In this document: positions 1,917 through 61,055 of the stretch, piece by piece
Layout of the letters: each line of letters begins with the position of its first letter
How positions within the stretch are numbered: the first letter of the stretch is position 1
DNA from: an uncultured Clostridia bacterium
Lineage (GTDB): Bacteria > Bacillota > Clostridia > Christensenellales > UBA1242
NCBI GenBank assembly: GCA_930990515.1
Contig: CAKNPS010000001.1
Coordinates: forward strand, 103,280-167,279
Length of the DNA stretch: 64,000 bases
Reading direction: 5' to 3'
Made by a program: the position numbers and the translations under genes
The notes under the pieces: generated by a model
Told to the model about the DNA's origin: nothing
The model's input: only the letters and a program-made list of their open reading frames with translations
The model's database searches: none

Positions 1917-2127
1917 TTCGACAAAAATAGCCTAATATTTTACAAAAATTTTTAAAAAGGAAAGGGTACATTCTAAGTATAAGTATAATATAAGTGCATA
2001 ATACACTATATTTTGTGGTGGTATGCAATAGTTGTCTCAATTTATACCATACTTATAGTTTGCTCAAAAACGACAATTTTTATAATCATTTAGTGTTTTT
2101 TTGAAATTTTGTCGTAAATTTGTCGAA
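1917..2127. promoter_or_regulatory. cluster of Spo0A-box-like heptamers (TGTCGAA) in the divergent region upstream of spoIVB
   Basis: TTCGACA at 1917-1923, AACGACA at 2069-2075, TGTCGTA at 2110-2116 and TGTCGAA at 2121-2127. The last two are direct repeats 11 bp apart. Confidence 0.3.
1995..2027. repeat. palindromic repeat family, copy A (inside-out arrangement)
   Basis: TGCATAATACAC-tatatttt-GTGGTGGTATGCA. The two half-sites face away from each other around a CAC-N10-GTG spacer. Confidence 0.7.
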
Positions 2128-2186
2128 ATTTCTCTAAAAATGCCTAATGTCCGTATAAATTTTTGAAAACGCAAGATACTAGAAAA

Positions 2187-3353
2187 ATGAGAAAAAATTT
2201 TTGGATATTCTATAGTTTTTTATGTTGTTTGGTTGTCGTGCTTATCGTTATGCCAATAATTGATATTTATAGCATTGAAGAAAATTTCTTAGTTAGTTTT
2301 GAAGATATGGAAACAGCAAATTCCAATGGAACTTTTGGAGCATACATTAGTGGCGAACTTGAACAAAAAGATCAATCAACAGGTTTAGAACAAACAAAAA
2401 CAGGAGAAGTGGTTTTCAAACTTTTTGGTTTTATTCCTATTCGTAAAGTTTCCGTCATTATGGTAAATGATGATGACTATTACATCGGTGGTGTTCCTAT
2501 AGGGCTTTCCATATATACAGATGGAGCGATTGTTATTGATGATAATGGAAATGATGGCATAAAAGAAGGAGATATTATCACGCAAATTGATGGCATTGAT
2601 TTTAATGAAATTGAAGATATGGAAAGTGTGTTAAAAGATAATGAAGAAGTTGAAGTTACCTATCTTCGTAAAAATAAGGAAGTAAAAACCCTTTTGAAAG
2701 TTAAGAATGAAAATAAAAAACATAAACTTGGACTTACTGTGAAAGATAATGTGACGGGTGTTGGAACTCTTACCTTTGTTAATACGAGAACTGGAGAATA
2801 TGGCGCTCTTGGGCATGCTATTATGGAAGAAGCAGGCGGAAACATTGTTCCAGTAAGCGATGGAAAAGTGTATGCGTGCAATCTTATTGGAATAACCAAG
2901 GGAGAAAAGAACAATCCTGGGCAACTTCGATGCGTATTCGTTCAAAATTCAAAAACTAAAGGAACGATTGAAACAAACAACAAGTTTGGAATAAAAGGTG
3001 TGATGACAAATACATCTGGGCTTGTTGATGAAAACTTAACAGCAAAAATTGGCGGTCGTTTTTCTGTCACACCGGGGAAAGCCACCATTGTCAGCGACAT
3101 TAGTGGAATTAAAGAAGAATATGAAATTGAAATCATAAAAGCAAACTATCAGAAGAAGGCAAACGATAAAAGTTTGGTTTTTAGAGTGAAAGACAAACGA
3201 CTTTTAAATCTTACTGGCGGAATTGTTCAGGGAATGAGTGGTTCTCCAATTATGCAAAATGGCAAAATTGTTGGGGCGGTTACACACGTATTTTTGTCTG
3301 ATGCCACAAAAGGCTATGGTGTTTACACTGATTGGATGACTCAAGACTTATAA
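2187..3353 (+). CDS. spoIVB: SpoIVB-type S55 serine peptidase (sporulation signalling protease)
   Basis: It has an N-terminal TM segment, a PDZ-like segment (GDIITQIDG), LGHAI, and the C-terminal GIVQGMSGSPIMQNGKIVGAVTHVF typical of SpoIVB. ATG 2187 is preferred over the track's TTG 2163. Confidence 0.88.
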   Translation: MRKNFWIFYSFLCCLVVVLIVMPIIDIYSIEENFLVSFEDMETANSNGTFGAYISGELEQKDQSTGLEQTKTGEVVFKLFGFIPIRKVSVIMVNDDDYYIGGVPIGLSIYTDGAIVIDDNGNDGIKEGDIITQIDGIDFNEIEDMESVLKDNEEVEVTYLRKNKEVKTLLKVKNENKKHKLGLTVKDNVTGVGTLTFVNTRTGEYGALGHAIMEEAGGNIVPVSDGKVYACNLIGITKGEKNNPGQLRCVFVQNSKTKGTIETNNKFGIKGVMTNTSGLVDENLTAKIGGRFSVTPGKATIVSDISGIKEEYEIEIIKANYQKKANDKSLVFRVKDKRLLNLTGGIVQGMSGSPIMQNGKIVGAVTHVFLSDATKGYGVYTDWMTQDL

Positions 3354-3535
3354 CACAACACACTATGTGTGGATTGTATATGATTTATATAATTTTGTAT
3401 ATTTATAGTATTATCATTTAAGTAAATATAATCAATAATTAAATTTTTTACAAAATTTACAAATTTACTATAATTTATGATTTTAAACACGCAATCAATA
3501 AAAAAAGTAAAATTTTTACAATATTGTCAAAATCT

Positions 3536-3564
3536 TTGGAAATTAATTTTTAATTTGATATAAT
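3536..3564 (+). promoter_or_regulatory. sigma-A-type promoter of the xer-like gene; leaderless geometry
   Basis: TTGGAA (3536-3541), 17 nt spacer, TATAAT (3559-3564). ATG 3565 abuts the -10 box and a second ATG at 3571 lies 6 nt downstream. There is no Shine-Dalgarno sequence. Confidence 0.55.
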
Positions 3565-4617
3565 ATGAATATGAAAAATTTGACCTATTTTGAAAAGCGT
3601 GACTTAAAAAATATGGAAAGGATAGGGGAGTATCTTCAAAAACTGCCAGAATATTGTTATGATTATTTCACTGGCATTGAACTTAACACTTCTTCTCTTA
3701 CAAGACTAAATTATGCAATGGATATTTCCATATTTTATGAGTATTTATCTAAATATGTTTTTAAAAAAGATATTAAAAATATTACGCTAGAAGATTTAGA
3801 TTCCTTGGAAGCAAGAAATATTGAAAGTTTTTTGTCCTATCTTTCTTTTTATCAAATTGATGATAAGGTCTATAAGAACAATGAAAAAGGTAAGGCAAGA
3901 AAACTTGCCAGTGTGAGAAGTTTTTTTAAATATCTTTTCAATCACGATATGATTTATAGAAATGTGGTGAGCAAAGTGCCAACACCGAAACTTCATAGCA
4001 AGGAGATAATAAGATTAGAGAGTGATGAAGTTGAAAGAATGCTTGATGCTGTTCAAATGCCAACCACATTCACTGAAAGACAAAAAAACTATAACAAAAA
4101 CACCAAGGTGCGTGATAATGCCATTGTGACACTTTTTTTAGGCACTGGCATAAGAGTAAGCGAACTTGTAGGGCTAAATGTGGAAGATATTGATTTTTCA
4201 CAAAACGCTTTCAAGGTCACAAGAAAGGGTGGAAATCAGGTTATTTTGTATTATCCTAATGAAGTCAAGTATGCTCTTCAAGAGTGGCTTGAGATAAGAA
4301 AAACTTTGCCGATTGATGAAAATGAAAAAGCGTTATTCATTTCCCTTCAAAACAGAAGAATCTGCACTCGAGCAGTGGAAAACCTTGTTAAAAAGTTTGC
4401 AAGAGAAAGCACACCTTTAAAGAAGATTTCTCCGCATAAACTTCGTTCCACTTTTGGCACAAATTTATATAGAGAAACTAAAGACATTTATATTGTTGCT
4501 GACGTTTTGGGACATAAAGATGTTAACACCACAAAGAAACACTATGCGGCTATTGATGATGACATTAGAAAGAATGCAGCAAAGAAAGTTAAAATTACAA
4601 ATAGTTTGTATGAATAA
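3565..4617 (+). CDS. tyrosine site-specific recombinase, XerC/XerD-like (phage integrase family)
   Basis: Catalytic residues are present in GTGIRVSEL (Arg), HKLRSTFGT (His-x-x-Arg) and LGHKDVNTTKKHY (His, Tyr), with an N-terminal SAM-like core-binding domain. The true start may be ATG 3571 if the mRNA is leaderless. Confidence 0.85.
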   Translation: MNMKNLTYFEKRDLKNMERIGEYLQKLPEYCYDYFTGIELNTSSLTRLNYAMDISIFYEYLSKYVFKKDIKNITLEDLDSLEARNIESFLSYLSFYQIDDKVYKNNEKGKARKLASVRSFFKYLFNHDMIYRNVVSKVPTPKLHSKEIIRLESDEVERMLDAVQMPTTFTERQKNYNKNTKVRDNAIVTLFLGTGIRVSELVGLNVEDIDFSQNAFKVTRKGGNQVILYYPNEVKYALQEWLEIRKTLPIDENEKALFISLQNRRICTRAVENLVKKFARESTPLKKISPHKLRSTFGTNLYRETKDIYIVADVLGHKDVNTTKKHYAAIDDDIRKNAAKKVKITNSLYE

Positions 4618-4622
4618 TCAAC

Positions 4623-4657
4623 ATATAGAGTGTTATGCAATGCGTAATACTCTATAT
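4623..4657. repeat. palindromic repeat family, copy B
   Basis: ATATAGAGTGTTATGCA-A-TGCGTAATACTCTATAT (15/17 arm match), starting 6 nt after the xer stop. Confidence 0.75.
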
Positions 4658-4809
4658 TTAGTTTAAAATCTTTAACTAAATTTTGTTTAATTACTATTTG
4701 CTTTTGTCAAATTTTTGCACTTACCTTTAAACTTTAATTGTTTTCTAAGGCAAATAAGTTGATATAAAAACGGAAAAAAGCAATGTTTTTATTTTGCTTT
4801 TTATATATT

Positions 4810-4858
4810 TTCGAGAATTTCTATCTTATTTCGACAATATTCAAGAGAAAATTCGACA
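4810..4858. promoter_or_regulatory. phased array of three TTCGA(C/G)A heptamers upstream of the tig promoter
   Basis: TTCGAGA at 4810-4816, TTCGACA at 4830-4836 and TTCGACA at 4852-4858. All are on the same strand, with 20 and 22 bp spacing, ending 31 bp before the -35 box. Confidence 0.3.
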
Positions 4859-4888
4859 ACAAATTGCTTAATTTTAGGTCATTATTGT

Positions 4889-4917
4889 TTGCTTTTTATA
4901 AAAATATATGCTATAAT
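4889..4917 (+). promoter_or_regulatory. sigma-A-type promoter upstream of tig
   Basis: TTGCTT (4889-4894), 17 nt spacer, TGc-TATAAT (4912-4917, extended -10). Confidence 0.55.
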
Positions 4918-5002
4918 CTTCGTAGTTTTTGCTAAAGTGGTGTAGTTTGCCCGATATGAAACCCTTTTGCAAAAAATAATCTACATTTAAGGGGACAAAT
5001 TT

Positions 5003-6271
5003 ATGTATAATTACAAAGTAAACGGATCAAAAGTCATCATTGACGTTAATATTGATGACAAAGAATGGAATGAAGGCGTTAATAAAGTCTATGAAAGCAC
5101 AAAAGCAAAGTTTAATGTTGTTGGTTTTAGAAAAGGTCACGCTCCTAAAAAAGTGATTGAACAACAATATGGCGACGATGTTTTCTATGAAGATACTTTA
5201 GACTATTTCATCAGAAAAACACTTAATGACTTTTTAAACGAAAATTCAAAATATGAACCAGTCTCATATCCAAACACAAAACTTGGAGAATATGTTGTTG
5301 GCGAAGGAATTAAATTCACAATTGAATTTGACATTATGCCAGAATTTAAACTTCCAGCCTATACTGGTCTTGAATTTACACAAGAAAGCCCAAAAGTAAC
5401 TGATAAGGAAATTGAACATGAAATCCATCACTTACTTGAAGACAATGCTTCATTTAATAGCGTTGACAGAGAAAGCAAAATGGGTGACCACACTGTAATT
5501 GACTTTGTTGGCTCTATTGATGGCGTGGAATTTGAAGGCGGAAGAGCGGAAGATTTTCCACTTGAACTTGGTTCACATTCCTTTATCGACACCTTTGAAG
5601 ACCAACTCGTTGGTAAGAAAAAAGGTGACAAAGTTGATGTTAATGTTAAATTCCCTGATGACTATCCTGCAAAAGAATATGCTGGGAAGAAAGCACTCTT
5701 TAAGGTAACAATTAAAGATGTTCGCGAAAAAGTTCTTCCAACTTTTGACGACAAATTTGTTGCTGATACGACAGAATTTGAAACAGCAGATGAGTATAAA
5801 AAACATATTGCTGAGCATATTCAATCTATGAAGGAAGAAAGAGCAGACTATGACATTAAACACGACATTTTAAGACACATCATTGACAACACAGAAATGG
5901 AAATTCCAAAATCTCTTATTGATATGGAAGTTGAAAACAATGTTAAGCAACTTGAAGATGCTTGCAAAATGTATCAAATGGACATTAATGACTATTTAAC
6001 TCGTATGAACACAACTTTAGATGAATATAAGAAAAGTTGCGAAGATAGAGCAGTTAAAAGCATTAAATCTCGCTACATTTTAAGACAAATCATTGATGAA
6101 AACAACATTAATGCAACTGAAAAAGAAATTGACGAAAAAATTAAACAACTTCCTGATTTACGCGGAAAGAAAGAAATTACTCATGAAGACAGAATTTATG
6201 CAGAAAACAATGTTTTACTTGATAAAACATACAATTTCTTGAAAGAAAACAACAAAATTATTGTAAAATAA
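5003..6271 (+). CDS. tig: trigger factor
   Basis: Ribosome-binding motif GFRKGHAPKKV, a central FKBP-like PPIase segment, about 420 aa, and position upstream of clpP-clpX. Confidence 0.95.
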   Translation: MYNYKVNGSKVIIDVNIDDKEWNEGVNKVYESTKAKFNVVGFRKGHAPKKVIEQQYGDDVFYEDTLDYFIRKTLNDFLNENSKYEPVSYPNTKLGEYVVGEGIKFTIEFDIMPEFKLPAYTGLEFTQESPKVTDKEIEHEIHHLLEDNASFNSVDRESKMGDHTVIDFVGSIDGVEFEGGRAEDFPLELGSHSFIDTFEDQLVGKKKGDKVDVNVKFPDDYPAKEYAGKKALFKVTIKDVREKVLPTFDDKFVADTTEFETADEYKKHIAEHIQSMKEERADYDIKHDILRHIIDNTEMEIPKSLIDMEVENNVKQLEDACKMYQMDINDYLTRMNTTLDEYKKSCEDRAVKSIKSRYILRQIIDENNINATEKEIDEKIKQLPDLRGKKEITHEDRIYAENNVLLDKTYNFLKENNKIIVK

Positions 6272-6344
6272 CATAGCAATTTAGATTTTATGTATAATTG
6301 TTACAGACAAAAATTTATAGCAAATTTATAAAGGAGGAAAAATT

Positions 6345-17445: not shown

Positions 17446-17470
17446 AATTTAAATATTTTACGAATAGATA

Positions 17471-17829: not shown

Positions 17830-17856
17830 GTATTATGCAAAAATAATGCATAATAC
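17830..17856. repeat. palindromic repeat family, copy C (split core)
   Basis: GTATTATGCA-aaaataa-TGCATAATAC with perfect 10-bp arms, followed by CACAATATTTTG. Confidence 0.7.
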
Positions 17857-18218
17857 CACAATATTTTGATAAATTTTACTGCATATCACACTATATATTG
17901 ATTATTTATTCGCAAAACCTGTCTTTTGCGAATAGATATGTGTATACTTTTTTTATAAATCGCCCTAAAATTTTGTTATACAAATGGTTATCATTTAAGA
18001 TGTTTTTATATCAAAAATTGCATACAGGGTCTTTCTATTTCAAATTTATATTCATAAAATTTTAAATTTTTATCTTATACAAAACTTTCGTTTTTCCGCG
18101 TTTTTATATGCCAAATTTCACTTTTAAAGTTCATATAAATTCAAACTAGTTTATAATCTATTTCCTGCCCCAAATTTTAGCAGAATAAATTAATAACCTC
18201 CCCCAAAAATCTAAAGCA

Positions 18219-25117: not shown

Positions 25118-25142
25118 ACCTTACCCCTTCAACATATAATAC

Positions 25143-25184
25143 CATATATAGTGTATTATGCAATGCATACCACAATATATTTTG
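25143..25184. repeat. palindromic repeat family, copy D (ruvA-ruvB spacer)
   Basis: CATATATAGTGTATTATGCA-A-TGCATACCACAATATATTTTG. Confidence 0.8.
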
Positions 25185-25784
25185 TTATCTACCTAAATAT
25201 TTTAAAACCTTCAATATGATTTCTTCTGCTGTCGCATCATTCGATGCATTTGCTCTTGCAAGTTTGTATGCTTCATTCTTATTGACCCCTAAACTTATAA
25301 GAGTTTCAACTGCATCGTTAAGAGCACTTTCGTTGATATTGACAACTTCGTTATAGTTAAATAAGTCTGCTTCAATACCAACAGCATTGACTTTATCTTT
25401 AAGTTCAAGGCAAATTCTTTCTGCTGTTTTTCTTCCAAGCCCCTTAATTTTGGAAAGTAATGTGACATCTTCTCGCTTTATTGCCAAAATTAAATCGGAA
25501 ATTTTCATTCCAGAAAGAATGCTAATTGCCATTTTAGGCCCTACCCCTGAAACAGTGATAATTTGCATAAAAATTTGTTTTTCTTCCTTTGTTGCAAAAC
25601 CATACAAAGCCACTCCATCTTCTTTTACTTGAAGATATGTTAAAACTTTTGTTGTTTCGTTTATGTTTGGTAGTGCCACAAGAGTGTTGTTTGAAATTAA
25701 AAGTTTATACCCCACTCCGTTCACATCTAAAAGTAGATAATTTTCAAATTTTTCTTCAATTATTCCAACTAAAAATCCAATCAT
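25185..25784 (-). CDS. ruvA: Holliday junction DNA-binding protein RuvA
   Basis: OB N-domain and HhH motifs (VSGVGPKMA, GLGRKTAERI). Confidence 0.95.
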   Translation of the reverse strand: MIGFLVGIIEEKFENYLLLDVNGVGYKLLISNNTLVALPNINETTKVLTYLQVKEDGVALYGFATKEEKQIFMQIITVSGVGPKMAISILSGMKISDLILAIKREDVTLLSKIKGLGRKTAERICLELKDKVNAVGIEADLFNYNEVVNINESALNDAVETLISLGVNKNEAYKLARANASNDATAEEIILKVLKYLGR

Positions 25785-28227: not shown

Positions 28228-28950
28228 TTAGAAATTATCTTTAGCAATTTCATACATAATAATCGAACCACTTACTCCAGCATTTAAACTTTCAATTCCT
28301 TCTTTCATAGGAATTTTTACACTGGTATAGCATAGAGCGGAAATCTCTTCACTTAAACCTTGCCCTTCATTGCCTATGACAATTCCAACATTTCCATTTG
28401 GTTTAAAAGTGAAAATGTTTTCGCCGTTCATATCACATTTGATAAGATTTAAAGTGTTTTGTTTAGAAAATTCGACAAAGTCATTTCGTGACATTGAATA
28501 AACTTTAATTCCAAAAACTGCCCCAACAGACGAGCGAATAAGTTTGGAATTTGTCACACTTACAGAGTCCACCAAAAACACAGAGTCCATTCCCGTTGCT
28601 TTGGCAGTTCGAATGAGTGTGCCCACATTTCCCGGGTCTTGGAGTCCGTCCAAAACCAAAAAGTGATTTTTAGGCTTAACCACAACATCTTGATTGTAGT
28701 ATGCAATGCATAATACTTTCTGTGGTGTTTTTGTGTCCGAAAGAATTTCTATTGTTCTCTCGTCAACACGATAAACCCTGCAAGTTGTCTTGAATGGCAA
28801 CTCGTCCAAACTTGTCAAGATGTATTCAATTTTTAAGTTTTTATTATCTAAATTATCTTTAATTATTTTGACATTATCCAAAAAAAGCAAAGACTTATCT
28901 CGTTTTTGCTTTTTAAGGTTAGATATTAAACTTTTGGTCGCCCGTTCCAT
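28228..28950 (-). CDS. TrmH/SpoU-family RNA 2'-O-methyltransferase (YsgA-like, downstream of rplT)
   Basis: SpoU motifs LDGLQDPGNVGTLIRTA, IVIGNEGQGLS and IPM..GIESLNA. Confidence 0.88.
   Translation of the reverse strand: MERATKSLISNLKKQKRDKSLLFLDNVKIIKDNLDNKNLKIEYILTSLDELPFKTTCRVYRVDERTIEILSDTKTPQKVLCIAYYNQDVVVKPKNHFLVLDGLQDPGNVGTLIRTAKATGMDSVFLVDSVSVTNSKLIRSSVGAVFGIKVYSMSRNDFVEFSKQNTLNLIKCDMNGENIFTFKPNGNVGIVIGNEGQGLSEEISALCYTSVKIPMKEGIESLNAGVSGSIIMYEIAKDNF
28697..28717. repeat. palindromic repeat family, copy E (inside the TrmH-family CDS)
   Basis: GTAGTATGCA-A-TGCATAATAC. Its reverse complement is identical to the 21-mer of copy F. It encodes VLCIAYY. Confidence 0.75.
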
Positions 28951-33545: not shown

Positions 33546-33577
33546 TTTTTATCCTTATAACAAATTAATATAATATA

Positions 33578-33623
33578 CAATATCTTGTTGTATTATGCAT
33601 TGCATACTACCACATATTTTGTG
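33578..33623. repeat. palindromic repeat family, copy F (upstream of polA)
   Basis: ...CTTGTTGTATTATGCA-T-TGCATACTACCACATATTTTGTG. Confidence 0.8.
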
Positions 33624-33941
33624 TTATAGTAGCGAAAGTGGATTTACTGAACTAAACCAACTGTAAATTACATCTGGGCAAGCCATAACAATAATATAGA
33701 CAACAATTGCCACAATAAGAATTATGAAGAAAACAACTTTTAATGGATTCCCTGCAAAATTGACGAGTGCGAAACAGAAAATAATTGCCACACCACCAAA
33801 GTTCACAATCAAATCAAACCAAGTGCGGAATGCTCCCATATCTGGTTCCCACGCAGTCTGTGTATCAATGACATTTACAATCAAAAAGCAAATATAAACC
33901 ACTGAAAGTATCGACAAAATTGTGTAAAGAACTTTTTTCAT
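33624..33941 (-). CDS. hypothetical small membrane protein
   Basis: Three TM segments. It has its own candidate promoter (TTGTAA, 17 nt, TGc-TAGAAT) downstream of the island terminator. Confidence 0.55.
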   Translation of the reverse strand: MKKVLYTILSILSVVYICFLIVNVIDTQTAWEPDMGAFRTWFDLIVNFGGVAIIFCFALVNFAGNPLKVVFFIILIVAIVVYIIVMACPDVIYSWFSSVNPLSLL

Positions 33942-39089: not shown

Positions 39090-39094
39090 ATTTT

Positions 39095-45783: not shown

Positions 45784-45797
45784 TTTTCTCCCTCCTT

Positions 45798-46250
45798 TTA
45801 AGCCAATATATCAGAAAGCGTTGCCACAGCCTCACTTGACAAAGCCGTTGATGGAAAAACAAGAAGAACTGTGTCGTCACCATAAGTTGTTCCCATAAGG
45901 TCAATAAGATTGAGTTTGTCAATAAAAGAAGCAACACTTCCACCCATTCCTTTGATGGTTTTAATCACAGCAAGATTAAGAGCATTTTTAACCGAAATAA
46001 CAGATTCCTTAAAAATTGTTATGTAACGGTTAGAAATTGCTTGTTGTTCAGAACCCAAAATGGCATATTTATATTTGCCAGTTGAAGACAAAATTTTTGT
46101 AAGACCAAGTTCTTTGATATCACGAGAAATAGTTGCTTGTGTAATATCAAAATCAGCATTTTTAAGTTCTTTTGCGAGTTCTTCTTGAGTTTCAATCTCT
46201 TTAATTGAGATGAGTTCAAGAATTTTCGACTGTCTTGCACTTCTTGCCAT
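45798..46250 (-). CDS. argR: arginine repressor ArgR/AhrC
   Basis: The start was moved to ATG 46250 (MARSARQSKILELI), which follows AAAGGAG. It has a winged-helix N-domain and C-terminal GTTYGDDTVLLV. Confidence 0.92.
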   Translation of the reverse strand: MARSARQSKILELISIKEIETQEELAKELKNADFDITQATISRDIKELGLTKILSSTGKYKYAILGSEQQAISNRYITIFKESVISVKNALNLAVIKTIKGMGGSVASFIDKLNLIDLMGTTYGDDTVLLVFPSTALSSEAVATLSDILA

Positions 46251-46380
46251 AACAAACTCCTTTAAGCCATATAACCCGCTAAAATAGGGCAATTAGGCGA
46301 TTTATGCATAAATATAAATTTATAAATATTAATGCATTTTTCATTATTATACAATAAAATTTATAATTATGCAAGTGATT

Positions 46381-46398
46381 TTTGAATATTTATGCAAT
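46381..46398. promoter_or_regulatory. candidate ARG box upstream of argR
   Basis: TTTGAATATTTATGCAAT matches TGAAT-WWWW-AT(T/G)CA. Three further ATGCA-containing AT-rich sites lie at 46303-46376. Confidence 0.3.
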
Positions 46399-46516
46399 AA
46401 ATTTTTATAATAATTTGAAAATGTGAAAATTTATAAATTCAAAAAGAATAAATATAAGTTAATATACATTTTAAAGTTCAATGAAAATATCGACAAATAA
46501 TAGTCCCCTGCCCCAC

Positions 46517-46546
46517 AATAAAAAACTGCAAGTAAAACCTGCAGTC
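46517..46546 (-). terminator. rho-independent terminator after thiI
   Basis: On the minus strand: ACTGCA-ggttttact-TGCAGT followed by TTTTTTATT. Confidence 0.6.
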
Positions 46547-46567
46547 TTAAATCACAAAAATAAAAAC

Positions 46568-47722
46568 CTATCTTTTTAAAACTAAAACTTCTTTTGTGTT
46601 TAAGGCATCGTTTACAAGTTCATCAATATTTAAAAATTTTTCTTGATACTCTGCTTTTTTAATCGTTGGTTTAATAACAGGATATTTTGGCAAAAAGACA
46701 GTGCAACAATCTTCATAAGGCAAAATTGAAGTTTCGAAAGTCCCAATCTTTTTGGCAATCTCCACAATATCTTCTTTATCAAACGCAATAAGTGGACGAA
46801 AAACTGGAAGTGAAACCACACTGTTTGTAACATTGATGCTTTGCATTGTTTGGCTGGCAACCTGCCCCAAACTCTCCCCTGTGATTATCGCTCCAAGTTC
46901 ATTTTGTTCGCAAATCTTTTCTGCAATTCTCATCATAATTCTTCGCATAATTGTAATCATATATTCCGAATCGCAATTCATATGAATTTGTTCTTGAATT
47001 TTTGTGAAAGAAACAATGTGAAGTTTGATTTCATCACAATATTTTGTAAGTTCTTTTGCAAGAGTGATAACTTTTTCTTTTGCCTGTTCACTTGTGTATG
47101 GATAAGAATGAAAATGCACTGCTTCAATTTTAAGTCCACGCTTTGCCATTAAGTATGCTGCAACTGGACTATCTATTCCCCCAGAAAGAAGAACAAGTGC
47201 TTTACCACCCGAACCTAATGGAAGCCCACCATCGCATTTAATTGTTTCGTAGTAGATAAAAGTTTGGTTGTTAAATCTTACTTCAACATTTATGTTGTGT
47301 TCTGGATTATGTAAATCAACTTTAGCGTTTTTATTGCTTTCTAAAACAACTTCGCCAAGTTTTCTTTCCATCTCAACTGAAGTCATAGGAAATTTCTTAT
47401 CTGCTCTTTTTGCATTAACTCTAAAAGTTCCATCAATTTCAATGTTTGAAACAAATTTTGCAATTTCTTCAAAGTCAGATGCCACTTCTGTCGCCTTTGA
47501 AACACCAATAAGTCCAAACACAGTTGTTAAGTTTTGAACAATGGCATTTTCTTCCATTTCGTCATAGTCTGAAATAATAATTCTTCCAACAACCTGTTCC
47601 AATGAAAAAGAAAAGGAAGAAAGTTTTGTTTTGATATTCTCAATCAAAAGTTTTTCAAAATCTTTCTTATTTTTACCTTTTAAGAACAATTCACCGAATT
47701 TCAATAATAAAACTTTTTTCAT
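46568..47722 (-). CDS. thiI: tRNA 4-thiouridine synthase ThiI
   Basis: Ferredoxin-like and THUMP N-terminal domains, and PP-loop motif LLSGGIDSPVA. Confidence 0.94.
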   Translation of the reverse strand: MKKVLLLKFGELFLKGKNKKDFEKLLIENIKTKLSSFSFSLEQVVGRIIISDYDEMEENAIVQNLTTVFGLIGVSKATEVASDFEEIAKFVSNIEIDGTFRVNAKRADKKFPMTSVEMERKLGEVVLESNKNAKVDLHNPEHNINVEVRFNNQTFIYYETIKCDGGLPLGSGGKALVLLSGGIDSPVAAYLMAKRGLKIEAVHFHSYPYTSEQAKEKVITLAKELTKYCDEIKLHIVSFTKIQEQIHMNCDSEYMITIMRRIMMRIAEKICEQNELGAIITGESLGQVASQTMQSINVTNSVVSLPVFRPLIAFDKEDIVEIAKKIGTFETSILPYEDCCTVFLPKYPVIKPTIKKAEYQEKFLNIDELVNDALNTKEVLVLKR

Positions 47723-48843
47723 TAAGTAACCCTTTTCTTTATATCATTATAAACACGAATAATAATTTCCCCTGCTTTTTCAATTTCTTCAACAGTTTGA
47801 TAAGCATTGAAACTTATTCTGCAACTTGAAATTATATCATTCTTTGTAATTCCAATTTGCTCTAAAACTCTGTTTCCTGCTTTTTTAGAAGAACAAGCAC
47901 TGCCAAGCCCAACAATAACCCCATTTTCTTCAAGTGCGTGAAGCATTGTTTCTCCTTTAACACCAGAGAAAACCAAACTTTCTATATAAGGCGAACCAGC
48001 AAAGTTTAAAATTTTGATACCGTTTTCTTTTGATATGACTTCATTAAATTTTTCTTTCAAATTCTTCGCATTTTCAAAATTTTGTTTAACATCAATTTTT
48101 TCAAGAGCGGTTTTTAAAGCCATAATTGCTGGCACATTTTCTGTGCCCGAACGAAGCCCATATTCTTGTCCACCACCATCGACAATATTTTTTATTAGAC
48201 TTAATTTTCTCACATATAACCCACCAACACCTTTTGGTCCGTGAAATTTATGGGCACTAAAAGTGAGTAAGTCAACTTTAAAATCTTCCACTGAAAAAGG
48301 AATTTTCATAAAACCTTGAACAGCATCAATATGAAGAATCGCATTTGGAGCAAACTTTTCACGAAGTTTGGAAATTTCCTTAATATCATTGATTGCACCA
48401 GTTTCATTGCTGACAAAAATTGTGCTGATAAGTCTTGTTTTTGAATTCAACTTACTTTTTAAATCATCTAAATCAATCTTTCCATCTTCCTTGAGTTTAA
48501 CAAAATGGACTTTCTTTCCCTGCATTTCCAAAGTTTTTGCCACATTCAAAACTGAAGGATGTTCCCCACTTGAAAAGACATATTCATAATCTCCACCACG
48601 CATCGAACCTTTGATGGCAAGGTTGTTACTCTCTGTCGCCCCACCCGTGAAGATAATTGTTCCTTCAAAGGCATTAAGTTTCTTCAAAATGAGAGAACGA
48701 ACATCATTTATCTCTGCACCAATTTTGGCACTCACTTTTGTAACAGCAGATGGATTATAAAATTCTTGACACGAATAAAAAGAATATGTTTTCACACATT
48801 CTTCAAACATTTTTGTTGTTCCTGCATTATCAAGAAATATCAT
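47722..48843 (-). CDS. cysteine desulfurase (NifZ/IscS-like partner of ThiI)
   Basis: Class-V aminotransferase fold, SAHKFHGPKGVGGLYVR, and Cys loop LGSACSS. Confidence 0.9.
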   Translation of the reverse strand: MIFLDNAGTTKMFEECVKTYSFYSCQEFYNPSAVTKVSAKIGAEINDVRSLILKKLNAFEGTIIFTGGATESNNLAIKGSMRGGDYEYVFSSGEHPSVLNVAKTLEMQGKKVHFVKLKEDGKIDLDDLKSKLNSKTRLISTIFVSNETGAINDIKEISKLREKFAPNAILHIDAVQGFMKIPFSVEDFKVDLLTFSAHKFHGPKGVGGLYVRKLSLIKNIVDGGGQEYGLRSGTENVPAIMALKTALEKIDVKQNFENAKNLKEKFNEVISKENGIKILNFAGSPYIESLVFSGVKGETMLHALEENGVIVGLGSACSSKKAGNRVLEQIGITKNDIISSCRISFNAYQTVEEIEKAGEIIIRVYNDIKKRVT

Positions 48844-48918
48844 TTTTCTCCTTTATATAATCATTGAGCAAAATTTAAATTACTAAACACGATAAGACAA
48901 AATTTTAAAATAATTTTG

Positions 48919-51318
48919 TTATGCTCTTAGTTTAGCACCAAACCTAAATTCTAAACTCTTTAACACCTTTTTAATTATAGCATTAATTTCGTCAGCAGTC
49001 AAAGTTTTATCATCACTTACTAGACGAATTTTATATGCAAGACTTTTGTTGTTTTCTCCAAGACTCTCACTGCGATAAACATCAAAGAGTTCGCACTCAA
49101 AGAAATGCTTACCACAAGCAGATTTAATTGCAGAGATAAGTTCTCCATTTGTCACCTTTTCATCAGCAACAACTGCAATATCTCTTTCAACAATAGGGAA
49201 TTTGGAAATTTCCTTTGTCGCATAAGTTTTTTCAGGAAGTTTAGATAAATAATCAGTGTCAAGTTCGGCATAATAAACATCTTCAGAAATGTCATAGTTT
49301 TTCAAAACTTTTTTATGCACTTTACCAAACCAGCCAACTTTTTTGCCATCACTTGCAATTATGTCAGCACTCACACCACTGTGAAGATAAGGTTCTTTTG
49401 ACCTTTCAAGTTTATATTCAAGTGGGAAAGAAATAAGCAAGTTTTCAATAACATTTTTAAGCATAAAGAAATCATATCCATCTTCACAAACTGCGATTGA
49501 CAAACGATTGTTTTCAACTGGAAGTTCGGTAAGTGGTAAAGATTTTGGTTGATAAACTCTCCCAGTTTCAAAAAATCTTAAGCCTTTATTCCCAACAGAC
49601 AAATTATAGTGAATATCAAGAAGTAAAGCATGCGCCATAACAGTTCTTACTGTTGACAAATCTTCACTAATAGGATTTGCAAGTTTAATGACATTTTTTC
49701 TTTCGTCATTTATCATAAGTTTTTCAATAGCAGATGGAGAATAAAGTGAGTAGTTCAAAGTTTCATAGAAACCATTGTCCACAAGTTCATTTTTCATCTT
49801 GTTTTCCATAACAAGTCTAGGTTCAAACGCTCCGACAGTGACAGAAGAATGTTCAAATGCACCACCTTCAACATTATTATAAACATCATAGCCATAAATT
49901 CTGATTAATTCTTCAGCTAAATCATTTTCATTTTCAACATCTTCACGATAATATGGTAAAGTGCAAGAAAGTTTGTCGCCATTTAAAATTGATTTAATCC
50001 CTAAACTATTTAAAATTTGAAGCACTCTCTTTCTATCAATTGTCACTCCTAATATTTTATCAATTTTAGACATTGAAGCTTCAATTTTCCTTTCTGGAAC
50101 TTCCTTTTGTTTGCAAGTGTCAATAATTCCATCAACAATCTTTCCGCAATTTAATGTTGAAACCAAATTTAATGCTCTTTGGATTGCTTTAATTGGTGTT
50201 GATAAATAAACACCCTTTGAATATCTCAAAGAAGAGTCCGTCATAACACCAATTTTACGGCTAGTGAGTCTCACACTCTTTAAATCAAAAACAGCACATT
50301 CAAAAATTGTTTCTGTGGTATCTTTCTCCACACAAGAATTAACTCCACCAATAACCCCTGCAATAACAACTGGTTTAACACTGTCAGCAATAACCATATC
50401 ATCAGAATTTAATGTGTAGGTATTTCCATTTAAAACGGCAATTTTTTCATCTTTTTTGGCATCACGAACAATAATTTTGCTTCCTGCAAGATGTTTATAG
50501 TCAAATGCGTGCATTGGCTGACCTTGTTCAATAAGAACATAGTTTGTGATATCAACAATGGTATTTATTGGTTTAATTCCAACTGCAAAAAGACGAGAAC
50601 GGAGCCAAAGTGGAGAACGAGTAAGTTTCAAATCTTTGACATAACTTGCCATATATCTTGGACATTTTTCTGTCTTAACTTCAACAGAAATATGGTCATT
50701 GATATTTCCGCCAACTGTTTTATATGAATAGTCAACATCTTTAAAAGGTTTATCGTAAATTGCACAAATTTCTCTTGCAATTCCAATAATACTGTTGCAA
50801 TCAGGACGATTTGGTGTTACATTGATGTCCAAAACAACATCATTAAGCATCAAAGCATCTTCAATCTTTGCCCCAATTTTCATATCATTTGGTAAAATTA
50901 AAATTCCATTAACTCCACCACCTTCGATATAGTTTTCATCAATTCCAAGTTCTTCTCCAGAGCAAAACATTCCGTCACTTTTAACACCCCTAAAATTAGT
51001 AGGTTTGATTTTAACACCATTAACTAAATCTGCTCCTTCAAGTGAAACAGGAACAACAGCACCTTCAAAGACATTTGTCGCAGAAGTTATAATTTGAACT
51101 TTTTTATCTCCGACATCAACTTGACAAATTTGAAGTCTATCTGCTTCTGGGTGCTTTTCAATTTTGGTAATTTTGCCAACATAAACATCGTGTAAATGTT
51201 CATTTTGGAAAGAATATTCTTCAACTTCAAAACCCGAAGTGGAAAGCTTTTCAGCGAGTTCTTCAACAGGAATGTCAATATCAACAAAATCTTTAAGCCA
51301 ATTATAAGAAACTTTCAT
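48919..51318 (-). CDS. pheT: phenylalanine--tRNA ligase beta subunit
   Basis: N-terminal MKVSYNWLKDFVD, tRNA-binding OB domain, B3/4 and B5 domains, and C-terminal FDX-ACB domain; 799 aa. Confidence 0.96.
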   Translation of the reverse strand: MKVSYNWLKDFVDIDIPVEELAEKLSTSGFEVEEYSFQNEHLHDVYVGKITKIEKHPEADRLQICQVDVGDKKVQIITSATNVFEGAVVPVSLEGADLVNGVKIKPTNFRGVKSDGMFCSGEELGIDENYIEGGGVNGILILPNDMKIGAKIEDALMLNDVVLDINVTPNRPDCNSIIGIAREICAIYDKPFKDVDYSYKTVGGNINDHISVEVKTEKCPRYMASYVKDLKLTRSPLWLRSRLFAVGIKPINTIVDITNYVLIEQGQPMHAFDYKHLAGSKIIVRDAKKDEKIAVLNGNTYTLNSDDMVIADSVKPVVIAGVIGGVNSCVEKDTTETIFECAVFDLKSVRLTSRKIGVMTDSSLRYSKGVYLSTPIKAIQRALNLVSTLNCGKIVDGIIDTCKQKEVPERKIEASMSKIDKILGVTIDRKRVLQILNSLGIKSILNGDKLSCTLPYYREDVENENDLAEELIRIYGYDVYNNVEGGAFEHSSVTVGAFEPRLVMENKMKNELVDNGFYETLNYSLYSPSAIEKLMINDERKNVIKLANPISEDLSTVRTVMAHALLLDIHYNLSVGNKGLRFFETGRVYQPKSLPLTELPVENNRLSIAVCEDGYDFFMLKNVIENLLISFPLEYKLERSKEPYLHSGVSADIIASDGKKVGWFGKVHKKVLKNYDISEDVYYAELDTDYLSKLPEKTYATKEISKFPIVERDIAVVADEKVTNGELISAIKSACGKHFFECELFDVYRSESLGENNKSLAYKIRLVSDDKTLTADEINAIIKKVLKSLEFRFGAKLRA

Positions 51319-51340
51319 TTTCTTTCTCCTTTATATAAAA

Positions 51341-51377
51341 CACAATATATAGTGTAGTATGCATTGCATAACACAAC
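51341..51377. repeat. palindromic repeat family, copy G (pheS-pheT spacer)
   Basis: CACAATATATAGTGTAGTATGCA-T-TGCATAACACAAC. Confidence 0.8.
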
Positions 51378-51380
51378 AAA

Positions 51381-52400
51381 TTAACGCATTTGCTTTAAAA
51401 ATCTCATATCATTTCTAAATAGGTATTTAATGTTAGGAATTTTATTTAAAACCATAACACTTCTGTCAATACCAGGTCCAAAGGCAAAACCCGAATATTT
51501 CTTACTGTCAATTCCAGACATTTCCAGAACTTTTGGATTGACAACTCCTGCCCCAAAAACTTCTGAAAACCCAGAACCTTTGCAAAGTGAACAACCTTTT
51601 CCACCACACATTTGACAAGTTGCATCAATTTCAATTGAAGGTTCAGTGAATGGGAAATATGAAGGACGAACACGCATTTTAACATCTTCGCCGAATAAAC
51701 GCTTCAAAATTGTGTCAATCATTTTCATTAAATCTTTAAGACCAACATTCTCATCAACCACAAGTGCTTCAAATTGATTAAAGATTGGAGAATGAGAACT
51801 GTCATCATCATTTCGATAAACTCTCCCAGGACAAACAATTTTAAATGGTGGTTTAATTGTTTCCATTGCGTGAACTTGCATATTTGATGTTTGAGTACGA
51901 AGCACAATGTTGTCAGTAATGTAAAGTGAGTCTTGCATATCTCTTGCAGGGTGATTTTTTGGAACATTCAATGCTTCAAAGTTATAGTAGTCAGTGTCAA
52001 TTTCTGGTCCTTGAATAACAGTAAAGCCCATTTCCACGCAAATATCCATAAATTTATTATTAAATCGTGTTAAAGGGTGAAGGGAACCTTTCTTAATCCC
52101 CTTGCTTGGCATTGTTATGTCAACTCTTTCTTTTTCCATTTCGACTTCAAGTTGTTGTTCTTCTAAGACTGCAAGTTTTTTAGACAATGCTTCTTCAATT
52201 TTGTTTCTAACAACATTTGCAAGCATACCAACATCTTTTCTTTCTTCTGCTGGAATTTCTTTCATATTTCGTAAAATTGCAGTAAGTTCGCCTTGTTTGC
52301 CCAAAAACTTAACACGCACATCATCTAATGCTTTCAAATTATCAGCATTTTCAATTTCACTTAAGCCATTTTTCAAAATTGCATCTAATTTCTCTTTCAC
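51381..52400 (-). CDS. pheS: phenylalanine--tRNA ligase alpha subunit
   Basis: Class II motifs (HPARDMQDSLY, FRNDDDSSHSPIFNQFE, GFAFGPGIDR). GTG start after GGAGAG. Confidence 0.96.
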   Translation of the reverse strand: MKEKLDAILKNGLSEIENADNLKALDDVRVKFLGKQGELTAILRNMKEIPAEERKDVGMLANVVRNKIEEALSKKLAVLEEQQLEVEMEKERVDITMPSKGIKKGSLHPLTRFNNKFMDICVEMGFTVIQGPEIDTDYYNFEALNVPKNHPARDMQDSLYITDNIVLRTQTSNMQVHAMETIKPPFKIVCPGRVYRNDDDSSHSPIFNQFEALVVDENVGLKDLMKMIDTILKRLFGEDVKMRVRPSYFPFTEPSIEIDATCQMCGGKGCSLCKGSGFSEVFGAGVVNPKVLEMSGIDSKKYSGFAFGPGIDRSVMVLNKIPNIKYLFRNDMRFLKQMR

Positions 52401-52420: not shown

Positions 52421-52661
52421 AAAAAATGCCGTCCTATTATTAGGACGACATAGCCGTGGTACCACCTAACTTTATGCTTATAGAAGCACCTTAATTTTGC
52501 ATTTTACGCCTGCATACGCGACAACCCCTACACAAGATAAACTCTTCAAGGTGCAACTAGAAAGTGAATTCAATGCCACATTCCTTGCCTTATTTCCAGC
52601 AACCAAAGGCTCTCTGTAAGAAACTTTTTGACATCTACTAGTCTTTCATCATCGTTTTTAC
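52421..52661 (-). promoter_or_regulatory. T-box riboswitch leader (Phe, specifier UUC) controlling pheST
   Basis: On the minus strand: AGAGA in Stem I, specifier loop GAA-UUC-A (UUC at 52568-52566), the conserved T-box AGGTGGTACCACGG (52467-52454), and then terminator GTCGTCCTA-ataa-TAGGACGGC plus T8 (52450-52421). Confidence 0.88.
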
Positions 52662-58629: not shown

Positions 58630-59190
58630 TTATTTAACTTTTTCCATATATGATCCGTCACGAGTATCCACTCTTATTATATCACCAATGTTAACAAAAA
58701 GTGGAACATTGATTGTGTAACCAGTGATAAGTTTTGCTGGTTTCTTTGAAGCCTTTGATGTGTCGCCTTGAATTCCTGGCTCAGTGTCCACAACTTCAAG
58801 TTCAACAAATGTTGGTGGATAAACTGCAAAAGGCACACCCTTATACATATACATAGTTGTGTTCATATTTTCTGTAACAAAATTTAAAACATCAGCAACC
58901 ACGTCTTTATTTAAAGGCATTTGCTCATAAGTTTCATTATCCATAAAATAATAAAGTTCGCCATCGTTGTAAAGATAAAGCATATCTTTCTTTTCAATAA
59001 CCGCTTCTTGAAATTTGTCAGATGGATTGAAAGTGTCCTCTCTAACTTGTCCTGTCATAACATTTTTAATTTTTGCTCTAACAAATGGAGAGCCTTTACC
59101 AGGTTTTACGTGTAAGAAGTCAACAACGTTGTAAACTGCTCCGTCCATTTCAAAAGTAGTTCCTTTTCTAAAATCTCCTGCTGTAACCAT
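58630..59190 (-). CDS. efp: elongation factor P
   Basis: [16 protein letters not shown] loop and three OB-like domains; 186 aa. Confidence 0.96.
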
Positions 59191-59309
59191 AAAAATCTCC
59201 TTAATTTTTTAATTTAATATAGTATTCAAATTTAAGAAAGGTAAAAACAATTCTTAAATTCAAAAACTAAAAAGCCAAATTGACTTTTAACTCAATTAGT
59301 ATAACATAC

Positions 59310-60173
59310 TTAACTGCGATTTGCAAGTGTTTTCAAATAAATATCTTTCATTGTTTTGCTATCTTCTGCCATTGTTCCTGAAGATTCACAAATAATATGG
59401 CAAGAAAGGTCATAATCAATAAGAACATTCACCAAATCTTCAAAATATGGTCCATAAATTGTGTCATCAAAAGTCAAGTGCCTTATTTCGCCTTTTGCAC
59501 CATATTGAATTTTTGAAAAATGAATATGTGCATTTTTAGTTCTTTCTTCGCCAAGTTTTTCAAAAGAATAATCAAAAATTCTTTTATAGTCATCTGCACT
59601 TTTAAGAGAACCTTGTGTTAATGCATTTATATGCCCAAAATCAAAAGTTGGAATAAGTTTTTTAGAAATTGTGCAAAGGTCAATAATCTCTTTATATGTT
59701 CCAATTTGCATAACCTTTCCCATAGTTTCAGGACAGAGATATTTATCTCCCAATTCTTCTTCAAAGGTTGGCATAATTTCTTTAAGCCTATTCGTCATCA
59801 AAGAAACTGCTTCTTCTCGCGTTTGTTTTCCACAAGAAGCAGGGTGAAAAACCATTCTATCTGCTTGCAAACTTTTCATAAATTTTATGCCGGTGTTTAT
59901 GTAACCTATGCTTTTGGTAAACATTTCTTCGTCAGGGTTAGCGAAATTTATAAAATAAGGTGCGTGGAGCGAAAGAACAATTCCTTCTTTTTTAAATTCT
60001 TCCCCAAGTTTTAAAGCGGTTTCAGTTGTCATACGATAACCTTGTCCAAAACTATATTCAAAAATGTCAAGTCCCCTTTCTTTGACCCATTTTGGTGTGT
60101 CAAAAGAAGATTTAAAACCTTCTTCATAAAAAGAAAGACTATTTCCTGCAGGTCCAAACAAAACTTTCCCCAT
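59310..60173 (-). CDS. TIM-barrel protein of the xylose-isomerase-like / AP endonuclease family 2 (endonuclease IV-like)
   Basis: 287 aa with His-rich metal-ligand pattern (LHAPYFINF, VFHPAS, FDFGHI, HIHFS...ICES). Confidence 0.6.
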   Translation of the reverse strand: MGKVLFGPAGNSLSFYEEGFKSSFDTPKWVKERGLDIFEYSFGQGYRMTTETALKLGEEFKKEGIVLSLHAPYFINFANPDEEMFTKSIGYINTGIKFMKSLQADRMVFHPASCGKQTREEAVSLMTNRLKEIMPTFEEELGDKYLCPETMGKVMQIGTYKEIIDLCTISKKLIPTFDFGHINALTQGSLKSADDYKRIFDYSFEKLGEERTKNAHIHFSKIQYGAKGEIRHLTFDDTIYGPYFEDLVNVLIDYDLSCHIICESSGTMAEDSKTMKDIYLKTLANRS

Positions 60174-60185
60174 AAATTTCCCCTT

Positions 60186-61055
60186 TTAAAAATCGGCTAA
60201 TCTTATTTTCATTTTTAAGTTTTTTTCTCTAACTTCTCCAACTCCTAAAAATTGATTATTAAAGTAAATCTTGTAAAAAGCATCTTTAAAATCAATAATT
60301 AATTGTTGACCATTTTTTAACTTAAAAAAGTCATTTTCGCTTAAGTTTATAATATCATAATCAAATAAATTTTGGCAAGGAATAATCTCAAAATTTCCTT
60401 TTTCAATATCTTCTAATAAATAAGCATCTTTTATGCAGAATACACCACATCTTGTGCGTAGTATGCATTGCATACTACCATAAGTGCCAAGTTTATATGC
60501 CAAATCACGACAAACACTTCTTATGTAAGTTCCACTTGAACAAGTGATTTCAAAGCGGAAAGTTCTGTTATTAATCTTCTTCAAAATCTTGAACTCATAA
60601 ATTTCCACTTCTTTTGGCGATAAATTGATTGTTTCTCCAACTCGTGCAAGTTTATACCCCACCTGTCCATTGACTTTTTTTGCACTATATTGTGGTGGCA
60701 TTTGCATATACTTTCCAATCATTGAATTAACTGCCATTTTTAACTCATTATCACTAAAATTCACTTCACATTCTTTAACAATTTTTCCTGATGTGTCCAA
60801 AGTGTCCGTTTCAAAACCAAAAACAAATTCTGTTTCATAAGTTTTATCTTTTTGAAGATAAAAATCAAACAATTTTGTGGCATTATTTATTGTGACTGGC
60901 AAAAGTCCTTCTCCTTCCAAGTCAAGAGTCCCTAGATGCCCGCATTTTTTTGCACCTAACTTAAATTTAACAATGTTTACCACTTTGTTAGAAGAAATAC
61001 CTTTCGGCTTATTTACTAAAACAATTCCGCTATCTTTAAATCTATATTCTTTCAC
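60186..61055 (-). CDS. truB: tRNA pseudouridine(55) synthase
   Basis: VNKPKGISSNKVV and catalytic GHLGTLDLEGEGLLP. Confidence 0.94.
   Translation of the reverse strand: MKEYRFKDSGIVLVNKPKGISSNKVVNIVKFKLGAKKCGHLGTLDLEGEGLLPVTINNATKLFDFYLQKDKTYETEFVFGFETDTLDTSGKIVKECEVNFSDNELKMAVNSMIGKYMQMPPQYSAKKVNGQVGYKLARVGETINLSPKEVEIYEFKILKKINNRTFRFEITCSSGTYIRSVCRDLAYKLGTYGSMQCILRTRCGVFCIKDAYLLEDIEKGNFEIIPCQNLFDYDIINLSENDFFKLKNGQQLIIDFKDAFYKIYFNNQFLGVGEVREKNLKMKIRLADF
60458..60478. repeat. palindromic repeat family, copy H (inside truB)
   Basis: A perfect 21-bp palindrome GTAGTATGCA-T-TGCATACTAC that encodes GSMQCIL in the conserved TruB core. Confidence 0.75.

Follow-up and report, generated by a model that had tools for sequence, protein, structure and literature searches.

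Dispersed palindromic half-site arrays of PadR-operator-like form in a clade of uncultured gut Clostridia

The 64,000-nucleotide stretch of DNA analysed here (the window; contig CAKNPS010000001.1 of assembly GCA_930990515.1, from an uncultured Clostridia bacterium, 32% G+C) carries a family of palindromic repeats dispersed among genes such as spoIVB, tig, ruvB, polA, pheT and truB. The family is built from two units. One is the 10-bp half-site TGCATAMYAC (H, with H' its reverse complement), two inverted copies of which round a single A or T make a 21-bp core of the form G-TAKT-N11-AMTA-C; the other is an AT-centred palindrome (the box, consensus ACACAATATATTGTGT) that flanks the cores, with half-sites and boxes alternating as ...box-H'-W-H-box-H'... 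A preliminary description of this DNA had listed eight related sites, which are, with their units and the genes around them:

Site 1995, 1995..2027: half-site, box and half-site (TGCATAATAC-ACTATATTTTGTG-GTGGTATGCA), between the divergent open reading frame (ORF) 665-1837 (minus strand) and spoIVB (start ~2250, plus strand).
Site 4623, 4616..4664: box 4616-4631, core 4630-4650 (GTGTTATGCAATGCGTAATAC, one mismatch) and box 4649-4664, beginning 6 nt past the stop of an Xer-like recombinase gene, with tig 350 nt downstream.
Site 17830, 17830..17903: H' 17830-17839, 7-nt spacer, H 17847-17856, box 17856-17871, H with one mismatch 17880-17889 and box 17888-17903 (box-to-box linker 16 bp), in a 775-nt gap where GC skew and gene strand switch.
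Site 25143, 25139..25185: box 25139-25154 (6/6), core 25153-25173 and box 25170-25185 (5/6; linker 15 bp), at the ruvA/ruvB junction, the core ending 36 nt before the ruvB ATG.
Site 28697, 28680..28728: box 28680-28695 and core 28696-28716, within a SpoU/RlmB-like methyltransferase gene (28228-28950, minus strand), encoding ...TPQKVLCIAYYNQDVV...
Site 33578, 33575..33624: box, core (33590-33610) and box, upstream of polA, the core ending 45 nt before the polA ATG.
Site 51341, 51340..51374: perfect box 51340-51355 and core 51354-51374, at the pheS/pheT junction, the core ending 36 nt before the pheT ATG.
Site 60458, 60434..60478: H with one mismatch 60434-60443, box 60442-60457 and perfect palindromic core 60458-60478, within truB (60186-61055, minus strand), encoding ...YGSMQCILRTRCG..., 285 bp upstream of an AP_endonuc_2 (nfo-like) gene.

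The repeat is a real, non-random and conserved feature. In the window, the exact 13-mer TATGCAWTGCATA occurs five times (25157, 28700, 33594, 51358 and 60462; ~0 expected) and the degenerate 21-mer GTDKTATGCAWTGCATAMHAC, allowing up to two mismatches, six times (4630 being the extra one; 0 expected), neither being found in any of 100 shuffles, and the half-site H occurs 15 times against 0.33 expected, every match falling within the eight sites. The 21-mer at 28696, in reverse complement, is identical to that at 33590. The eight sites, the five copies of TATGCA(A/T)TGCATA and the identical pair (28697 on the reverse strand and 33590) of the preliminary description are all borne out by these counts, and the gene contexts that it gave (ruvB, pheT, polA, the xer stop, the divergent region and the long gap) are correct. 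Several of its coordinates mark the start of a flank and not the core (cores at 4630-4650, 25153-25173, 28696-28716, 33590-33610, 51354-51374 and 60458-60478), and the common core that it ascribed to all sites holds for six, all of the form H'-W-H, but not for 1995, which is H-box-H', or for 17830, a pair with a 7-nt spacer plus a half-site and two boxes. That sites 28697 and 60458 lie inside coding sequence had gone unmentioned.

Six of the eight sites fall in the non-coding 10.5% of the window (binomial P = 3e-5). One further site was found in the flanking DNA of the same contig (10 kb to the left and ~8.5 kb to the right), a 0-spacer variant on the left side and upstream of a gene for a YlqF-like GTPase, giving a density of ~9 sites in 84 kb, or ~1 per 9 kb. 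In ~665 kb of related Clostridial DNA, scanned under relaxed criteria, there were 92 cores and 25 H-box-H' units, against none in shuffles. Half-sites were seen at spacings of 0, 1, 7 or 10 nt, overlapping, single or as direct repeats. At core positions 4/18 (alignment columns 21/35) the two halves differ, GTAG versus GTAT, in 30 of 38 non-redundant sites; this asymmetry exceeds what independent choice would predict and hints at an intrinsically asymmetric complex.

Scanning 185,579 species-representative genomes with GTNNTATGCAWTGCATANNAC yielded at least 118 loci, the counts by group and by position being lower bounds. About 75 of the 118 loci listed belong to related Clostridia metagenome-assembled genomes (MAGs), many at orthologous positions. 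Uncultured gut Clostridia MAGs akin to the window (group A; the closest among the matches listed is 91% identical, and one member is Candidatus Caccovivens faecavium) have flanking boxes and several matches per genome; Bacteroidetes (group B) have a single perfect palindrome without boxes; and MAGs labelled 'Christensenella' (group C) have additional direct half-sites, at sites adjoining spoIIR, spoVT and an amidase gene. Orthologous positions within group A are:

Within truB: at least 19 loci.
Within the RlmB-like gene: at least 8 loci.
pheS/pheT junction: at least 4 loci.
Upstream of spoIIAA: at least 4 loci.
Upstream of yunB: at least 4 loci.
Upstream of polA: at least 3 loci (L088 and L095 keep the polA site).
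Upstream of the YlqF-like GTPase gene: at least 3 loci.
Within the RluA-like gene: at least 3 loci.
ruvA/ruvB junction: at least 2 loci.

Single loci in group A lie beside a sporulation sigma factor gene (sigE/K-like) and beside a D-Ala-D-Ala carboxypeptidase gene. Given the motif at orthologous positions in related MAGs and the additional copy to the left of the window, local duplication, a trivial origin raised in the preliminary description, does not account for the family.

In related MAGs, the elements are kept while the adjacent intergenic sequence diverges. At the pheS/pheT junction, a block of half-site plus box is retained in five genera with half-site spacings of 0, 1, 1, 1 and 10 nt, and the element is not present in more distant relatives. 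A metagenome scan based on the TruB protein returned eight loci, with the motif in the two close ones (100% and 64% identity) and in none of the six distant ones (~40%). Translation of the core runs in one frame in truB and in another in the RlmB-like gene (GSMQCILR versus KVLCIAYY), which indicates that it is the nucleic acid on which selection acts. Should binding be confirmed, truB and an rRNA methyltransferase gene would offer a clear example of selection for a DNA motif overriding codon choice. The motif is essentially absent from viral contigs. The in-gene copies fall into three groups, all in genes for RNA-modification enzymes: TruB, SpoU/RlmB-like and RluA-like (L046, L051, L075). This confinement may be a coincidence or may be related to the genes.

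The family does not function as a conserved hairpin. Across the 38 non-redundant sites, pairing across the dyad is 64.5%, compared to a shuffled mean of 67.0%; the observed covariation score is equalled or nearly equalled in each of 500 shuffles; and the pair 4/18 is unpaired in 30 of the 38. When five copies were folded as the sense strand of their operons, four did no better than shuffles (z of -0.09, -1.33, -1.28 and +0.35). Unusually stable folds were obtained for 4623 (z = -5.35), 60458 (z = -2.88) and 17830 (z = -2.55). The copy after the xer-like stop (4623-4660) makes a 16-bp near-perfect hairpin (-19.1 kcal/mol), the strongest of the family and with no U-run terminator called, which could additionally be a transcript 3' structure. 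No terminators or sigma-70-like promoters were found at the ruvB, polA and pheT sites scanned. An Rfam scan of the window matched only a T-box leader (109.8 bits, 52438-52661, minus strand) upstream of pheS, in the same operon as the repeat copy downstream of pheS, and a tRNA scan of the window gave no match. With the base composition of 32% G+C, this leader marks the DNA as that of a Firmicute. Variable spacing, direct repeats and the lack of covariation together point to recognition of half-sites by a protein rather than to a conserved stem.

PadR operators are inverted repeats of ~20 bp, of the types TACT-N11/12-AGTA, ATGT-N8-ACAT or ATATGCA-N6-TGCATAT, and on comparison with published motifs the window core, G-TAKT-N11-AMTA-C with TATGCA half-sites, has this form. 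The regulator cdPadR1 of Clostridioides difficile, a PadR-s2 protein, binds TACT(N11-12)AGTA within a 21-bp GTACTAT...AGTA sequence, tolerates changes in the spacer and forms higher-order complexes (PMC5050560). Its operator resembles the core in being a 21-bp inverted repeat with a GTACTAT start and an AGTA(C) end and in its tolerance of spacer length; several inverted repeats occur in its own promoter, like the arrays here, and the motif has hundreds of predicted genomic copies, many in ORFs or between convergent genes, again as here. The two differ in that the inner 13 bp (TATGCAWTGCATA) are nearly invariant in the repeats described here and not merely AT-rich, position 4 is G/T and not C, the cores are flanked by a second conserved palindrome at positions kept across genera, and the candidate protein described below is membrane-anchored and 5-6 times longer. 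The AphA box of Vibrio, that of another PadR-family protein, is ATATGCA-N6-TGCATAT (PMC3440409), likewise an inverted repeat of an (A)TATGCA half-site, but its spacer is 6 nt and not 1, and AphA is a gammaproteobacterial quorum-sensing regulator without flanking boxes. The family had been called previously unrecognised: in the searchable full-text literature nothing relevant was found for the 13-mers or half-sites, but the operator form was already known for PadR proteins (PMC5050560, PMC3440409). What is new appears best filed as the expansion of a PadR operator form into a dispersed composite family with an NrdR-like component.

A direct association with PadR genes is seen in Bacteroidetes, where the 21-bp palindrome GTAYTATGCAWTGCATARTAC lies directly upstream of a ~110-residue PadR-family gene in at least 18 loci (L004, L007, L010, L015, L026, L053, L057-L060, L079, L084, L092, L096, L102, L103, L107 and L109) and adjoins the TAnnTTTG -7 promoter element of that gene. 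A gene for a PspC-domain membrane protein follows the PadR gene in three of three loci examined, L015 also having HAAS and Toast-rack domains. The palindrome is a candidate operator of the Bacteroidetes HAAS-PadR envelope-stress system, and the arrangement is, as far as gene order and motif position go, the classic picture of an autoregulated operator.

A hidden Markov model of the Bacteroidetes PadR proteins found one gene family in the Clostridial clade ('PadR-TM', 246 homologues detected), which is the only PadR-like gene found in Clostridial DNA within the 1.1 Mb of loci searched. In the protein (515-630 aa), a long acidic linker joins an N-terminal PadR domain (PF03551, 57 bits) to about four membrane helices at the C-terminus, and its nearest PDB relatives are LmrR and the cdPadR1-type PadR-s2 proteins. 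Its gene is preceded by an array, which we counted as four half-sites, with the layout H-box-H', ~9-13 nt, H, ~14 nt and a TTGACA-like -35 hexamer; the array is present in L069, L119, L120, L133 and L134 and partial in L062 and L121, and in L069 it runs on into TTGACT-17-TATAAT. Compared to the HAAS-PadR-like winged helix-turn-helix (wHTH) envelope-stress systems (bioRxiv 10.1101/2020.09.24.301986), the likeness lies in the palindrome preceding a stand-alone PadR wHTH gene in Bacteroidetes and in the coupling, in the Clostridial candidate, of a PadR wHTH to a membrane module; the difference is that wHTH and membrane part are in one polypeptide in Clostridia, with no HAAS or PspC domain detected in it, and that the Clostridial motif is dispersed over many loci and not confined to one autoregulated operon.

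Window site 1995-2027 is the homologue of the array upstream of PadR-TM. In relatives, this array is part of a conserved block of genes (tig, xer, spoIVB, a gene for a YgjP-like metallopeptidase, [array], PadR-TM, ..., recN, argR, thiI, pheT, pheS), which is contiguous in L120, L121, L133 and L134 and includes there a small membrane-protein gene (Sm_multidrug_ex). At the AT-rich non-coding gap 17446-18218 of the window, the gene strand switches from all-plus to all-minus and GC skew from positive to negative (profile over 1-64000); the gap probably marks the replication terminus. On opposite sides of this switch, 40 kb apart, lie the block's two halves (1-6300 and 44100-52400); xer has the reverse orientation, and the window lacks ygjP, PadR-TM and the Sm_multidrug_ex gene; judged by gene order, the split is a lineage-specific rearrangement round the terminus. 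The gene for the YgjP-like/WLM-type metallopeptidase (L119 9160-9789 and orthologues) is always divergent from PadR-TM across the array, with the SpoIVB peptidase adjacent, and the YgjP-like peptidase may be a proteolytic partner of the membrane-anchored regulator.

Our preferred reading, to which we assign a probability of roughly 0.55, is that the sites are clade-specific arrays bound by a PadR-type protein and not structured RNA or mobile repeats; which PadR protein would bind them, and what binding would do, can be proposed with less confidence. A PadR-family winged-helix protein would bind the half-sites as dimers or higher oligomers, and in the Clostridial clade the binder would probably be the membrane-anchored PadR-TM, autoregulated via its own array. 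At the sites 36-45 nt before the ruvB, pheT and polA starts and in divergent promoter regions, binding might modulate transcription of the downstream gene, and the copies inside genes might influence the gene that follows, or be roadblocks or anchors. Alternatively, the effect could be on local DNA organisation: extrapolation from 9 sites per 84 kb gives ~100-200 sites, and with these a membrane-tethered binder might have a nucleoid-organising role. The preliminary description had offered the operator of an unknown dimeric regulator as one candidate, and the evidence supports this much, with a PadR-family winged-helix protein as the proposed regulator; the regulon enriched in DNA-repair and translation genes that went with it is not established, conserved targets extending to tig, the YlqF-like GTPase gene, spoIIAA, yunB, a sporulation sigma factor gene and the PadR gene itself.

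Most PadR regulators act locally, as autoregulated repressors with one operon or a few under their control. On the reading preferred here, a PadR-type operator would be a dispersed, conserved feature throughout a clade of uncultured gut Clostridia related to Candidatus Caccovivens, reaching into operon-internal junctions and coding sequence and joined to NrdR-like boxes. If binding is confirmed, it would reveal a large regulon or an architectural system in organisms not yet grown, and give a first clue to the function of a conserved PadR protein anchored in the membrane.

Several observations weigh against binding by a PadR-type protein. No PadR gene was found in the window or its flanks (~84 kb), and the syntenic slot beside the array is filled by an unrelated 390-aa ORF (665-1837), so the cognate protein may be missing or encoded elsewhere. 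The arrays at PadR-TM promoters are box-centred, without a canonical H'-W-H core. A specific regulator would not be expected to have as many sites as one per ~9 kb. With no sigma-70-like promoter near the operon-internal sites, nothing there speaks plainly for simple repression or activation. Lastly, the flanking box has the positions critical for NrdR, at compatible linkers, and another protein could hence be the main binder. ORF 665-1837 itself was considered as a diverged PadR-TM and rejected, having no similarity to it and nothing matching in Pfam, NCBIfam or PDB; its promoter is strong and sigma-A-like (TTGCTA-17-TGcTATAAT), with a Spo0A-box-like site adjacent, and among the DNA searched the ORF is seen only in this species. 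As another candidate binder, ArgR (encoded at 45798-46292) was rejected on the established structure of the ARG box, whose geometry does not fit.

The boxes invite a second reading, in which the sites are operators for the dATP/ATP-sensing repressor NrdR, or dual modules for NrdR and a PadR protein, with NrdR on the 16-bp boxes and the core serving as a linker or binding a second protein. It is a point against this reading that NrdR normally controls ribonucleotide reductase operons only. In NrdR boxes, mutational work shows positions C4, A6, A8, T9, T11 and G13 to be highly conserved, and natural linkers between paired boxes are not conserved in sequence (PMC13584703); the proteins bind well across 14-17-bp spacers, most strongly at 15-17 bp, and two of four tested also bound across 18 bp. 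The boxes here are alike in being 16-bp palindromes with the same six positions, often paired across 15-18-bp linkers. At every window site at least one flank has all six; the window has 36 such 16-mers, of which 10 abut half-sites against 0.24 expected; and both flanks match at five or more of the six positions in 53 of 87 Clostridial cores, with linkers of 17 (39 cores), 18 (8), 15 (4) and 16 bp (2). The box pairs 25139/25170 (15-bp linker) and 17856/17888 (16-bp linker) look canonical for NrdR. However, the linker is here the best-conserved part and matches a PadR operator, unlike natural NrdR linkers; a second good box is wanting at five of the eight window sites, and many sites have a single box; half-site spacings of 0, 1 and 10 nt in the pheS/pheT orthologues shift the box-to-box distance; and good boxes almost never occur without half-sites in the Clostridial clade. 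Moreover, a search of the window and of loci L001-L118 gave no NrdR homologue, there is no nrd gene among the annotated genes flanking the sites, and the sites are far more numerous than in any known NrdR regulon. We consider NrdR binding unlikely; if true, it would tie polA, ruvB, the nfo-like gene and others to deoxynucleoside triphosphate (dNTP) status. The box-centred unit may instead be a second register for the same PadR protein, since it reads TAC-N12-GTA with an AT-rich centre, near to the TAC-N13-GTA of cdPadR1.

A further reading is a composite, dual-input element: a PadR-type palindrome as the conserved linker between two NrdR-type boxes, copied or selected at ~100-200 conserved positions including coding sequence, bound by the membrane-anchored PadR-domain protein and possibly by NrdR. 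We put this forward tentatively, as unlikely. To our knowledge, neither PadR nor NrdR proteins have been described in an arrangement of this kind, which could link many housekeeping operons to dNTP status and to signals from the envelope or from sporulation, or tether points of the chromosome to the membrane.

We rate a shade lower a purely architectural role, in which a protein anchored in the membrane or associated with the nucleoid would use the sites to organise the chromosome or tether it, as in Noc-NBS, ParB-parS, MatP-matS or RefZ-RBM. This would suit the high density (~1 per 9 kb over 84 kb), the conserved in-gene positions, the operon-internal sites with no promoter near them, a candidate binder with a long linker and membrane helices, and a window that spans the probable replication terminus. 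It is at odds with the placement of the sites, strongly biased to intergenic DNA (P = 3e-5) and at a fixed 36-45 nt from start codons, both typical of cis-regulation, and known architectural sites are mostly in coding DNA. The sites lie on both sides of the skew switch and the copy outside the window ~36 kb from it, so that within ~84 kb nothing indicates a domain restricted to the terminus.

Less probable still is a REP/BIME-like (repetitive extragenic palindrome/bacterial interspersed mosaic element) or otherwise structured RNA or DNA element, also among the initial candidates, whose hairpins would be mRNA stabilisers, terminators or targets of RAYT-like transposases and would have spread as small mobile elements. 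As in the REP/BIME of Enterobacteria, the palindromes are short, dispersed and often between cistrons (ruvA/ruvB, pheS/pheT, and also after the xer stop), they begin with GTAG or GTAT as REP heads do, and three copies fold well (4623, 60458 and 17830). The folding and covariation analysis above counts against it, the hairpins being mostly weak, as does the lack of terminator features at the three operon-internal sites and of any Rfam match beyond the T-box. Whereas REP elements are strictly extragenic and variable in their presence, positions are conserved here across genera and two of the eight copies are in coding sequence, in frame; half-sites also occur single, as direct repeats and at variable spacing; and neither the window ORFs that were scanned nor the gene tables of the loci showed a RAYT, IS200-like or Y1-transposase gene. 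The family is hence a caution for repeat annotation, in that a palindromic, intergenic, high-copy repeat need not be REP-like.

Sporulation sigma factor promoters, which would give forespore expression of repair and translation genes, we regard as very improbable. The Bacillus subtilis sigma-G/F consensus is GHATR/GCATR at -35 and CATXHTA/GGHRARHTX at -10, and the half-site holds words of both kinds, TGCATA being like the sigma-G/F -35 and CATAMTA like the sigma-G -10. The conserved targets include the sporulation genes spoIVB, spoIIAA, spoIIR, spoVT, yunB and the sigE/K-like gene, and downstream of the truB site lies an nfo-like gene, nfo being expressed in the forespore in B. subtilis. Yet nothing in the window matches the complete, correctly spaced consensus of sigma-G, sigma-F or sigma-E, a promoter needs no dyad symmetry, and the same palindrome is found in non-sporulating Bacteroidetes, beside PadR genes. 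A DNA uptake sequence (DUS/USS-like), offered initially with comM and dprA, both confirmed in the window, as points in its favour, and in keeping with the over-representation of the motif, has a negligible probability: such sequences are 9-12 bp long, occur ~1 per kb and lie mostly in genes or terminators, whereas the motif occurs ~1 per 9 kb (roughly ten times more sparsely), is intergenic in six of eight copies (P = 3e-5), is a long 21-bp palindrome with composite flanks, and is a single-copy candidate operator in Bacteroidetes.

A dif-type tyrosine-recombinase site was rejected, as the 1-bp spacer of the core does not fit the crossover region of a tyrosine recombinase, and there was no convincing match to a dif-like site in the gap at the probable terminus or beside the Xer-like gene. 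The Spo0A-box-like sequence TTGTCGAA occurs seven times in the window against 2.55 expected (1917, 2120, 4830, 4852, 28471, 55989 and 57048), and four of these copies share the intergenic regions of sites 1995 and 4623 (the promoters of spoIVB and the uncharacterised divergent ORF, and the region upstream of tig). Between polA and an ABC transporter lies a phage-like cluster (34120-41499) with a P22-like portal protein gene (39095-40936), a gene for a holin-like protein (34120-34509) and several ORFs without a family; there are no copies of the repeat inside the cluster, which may be a prophage remnant.

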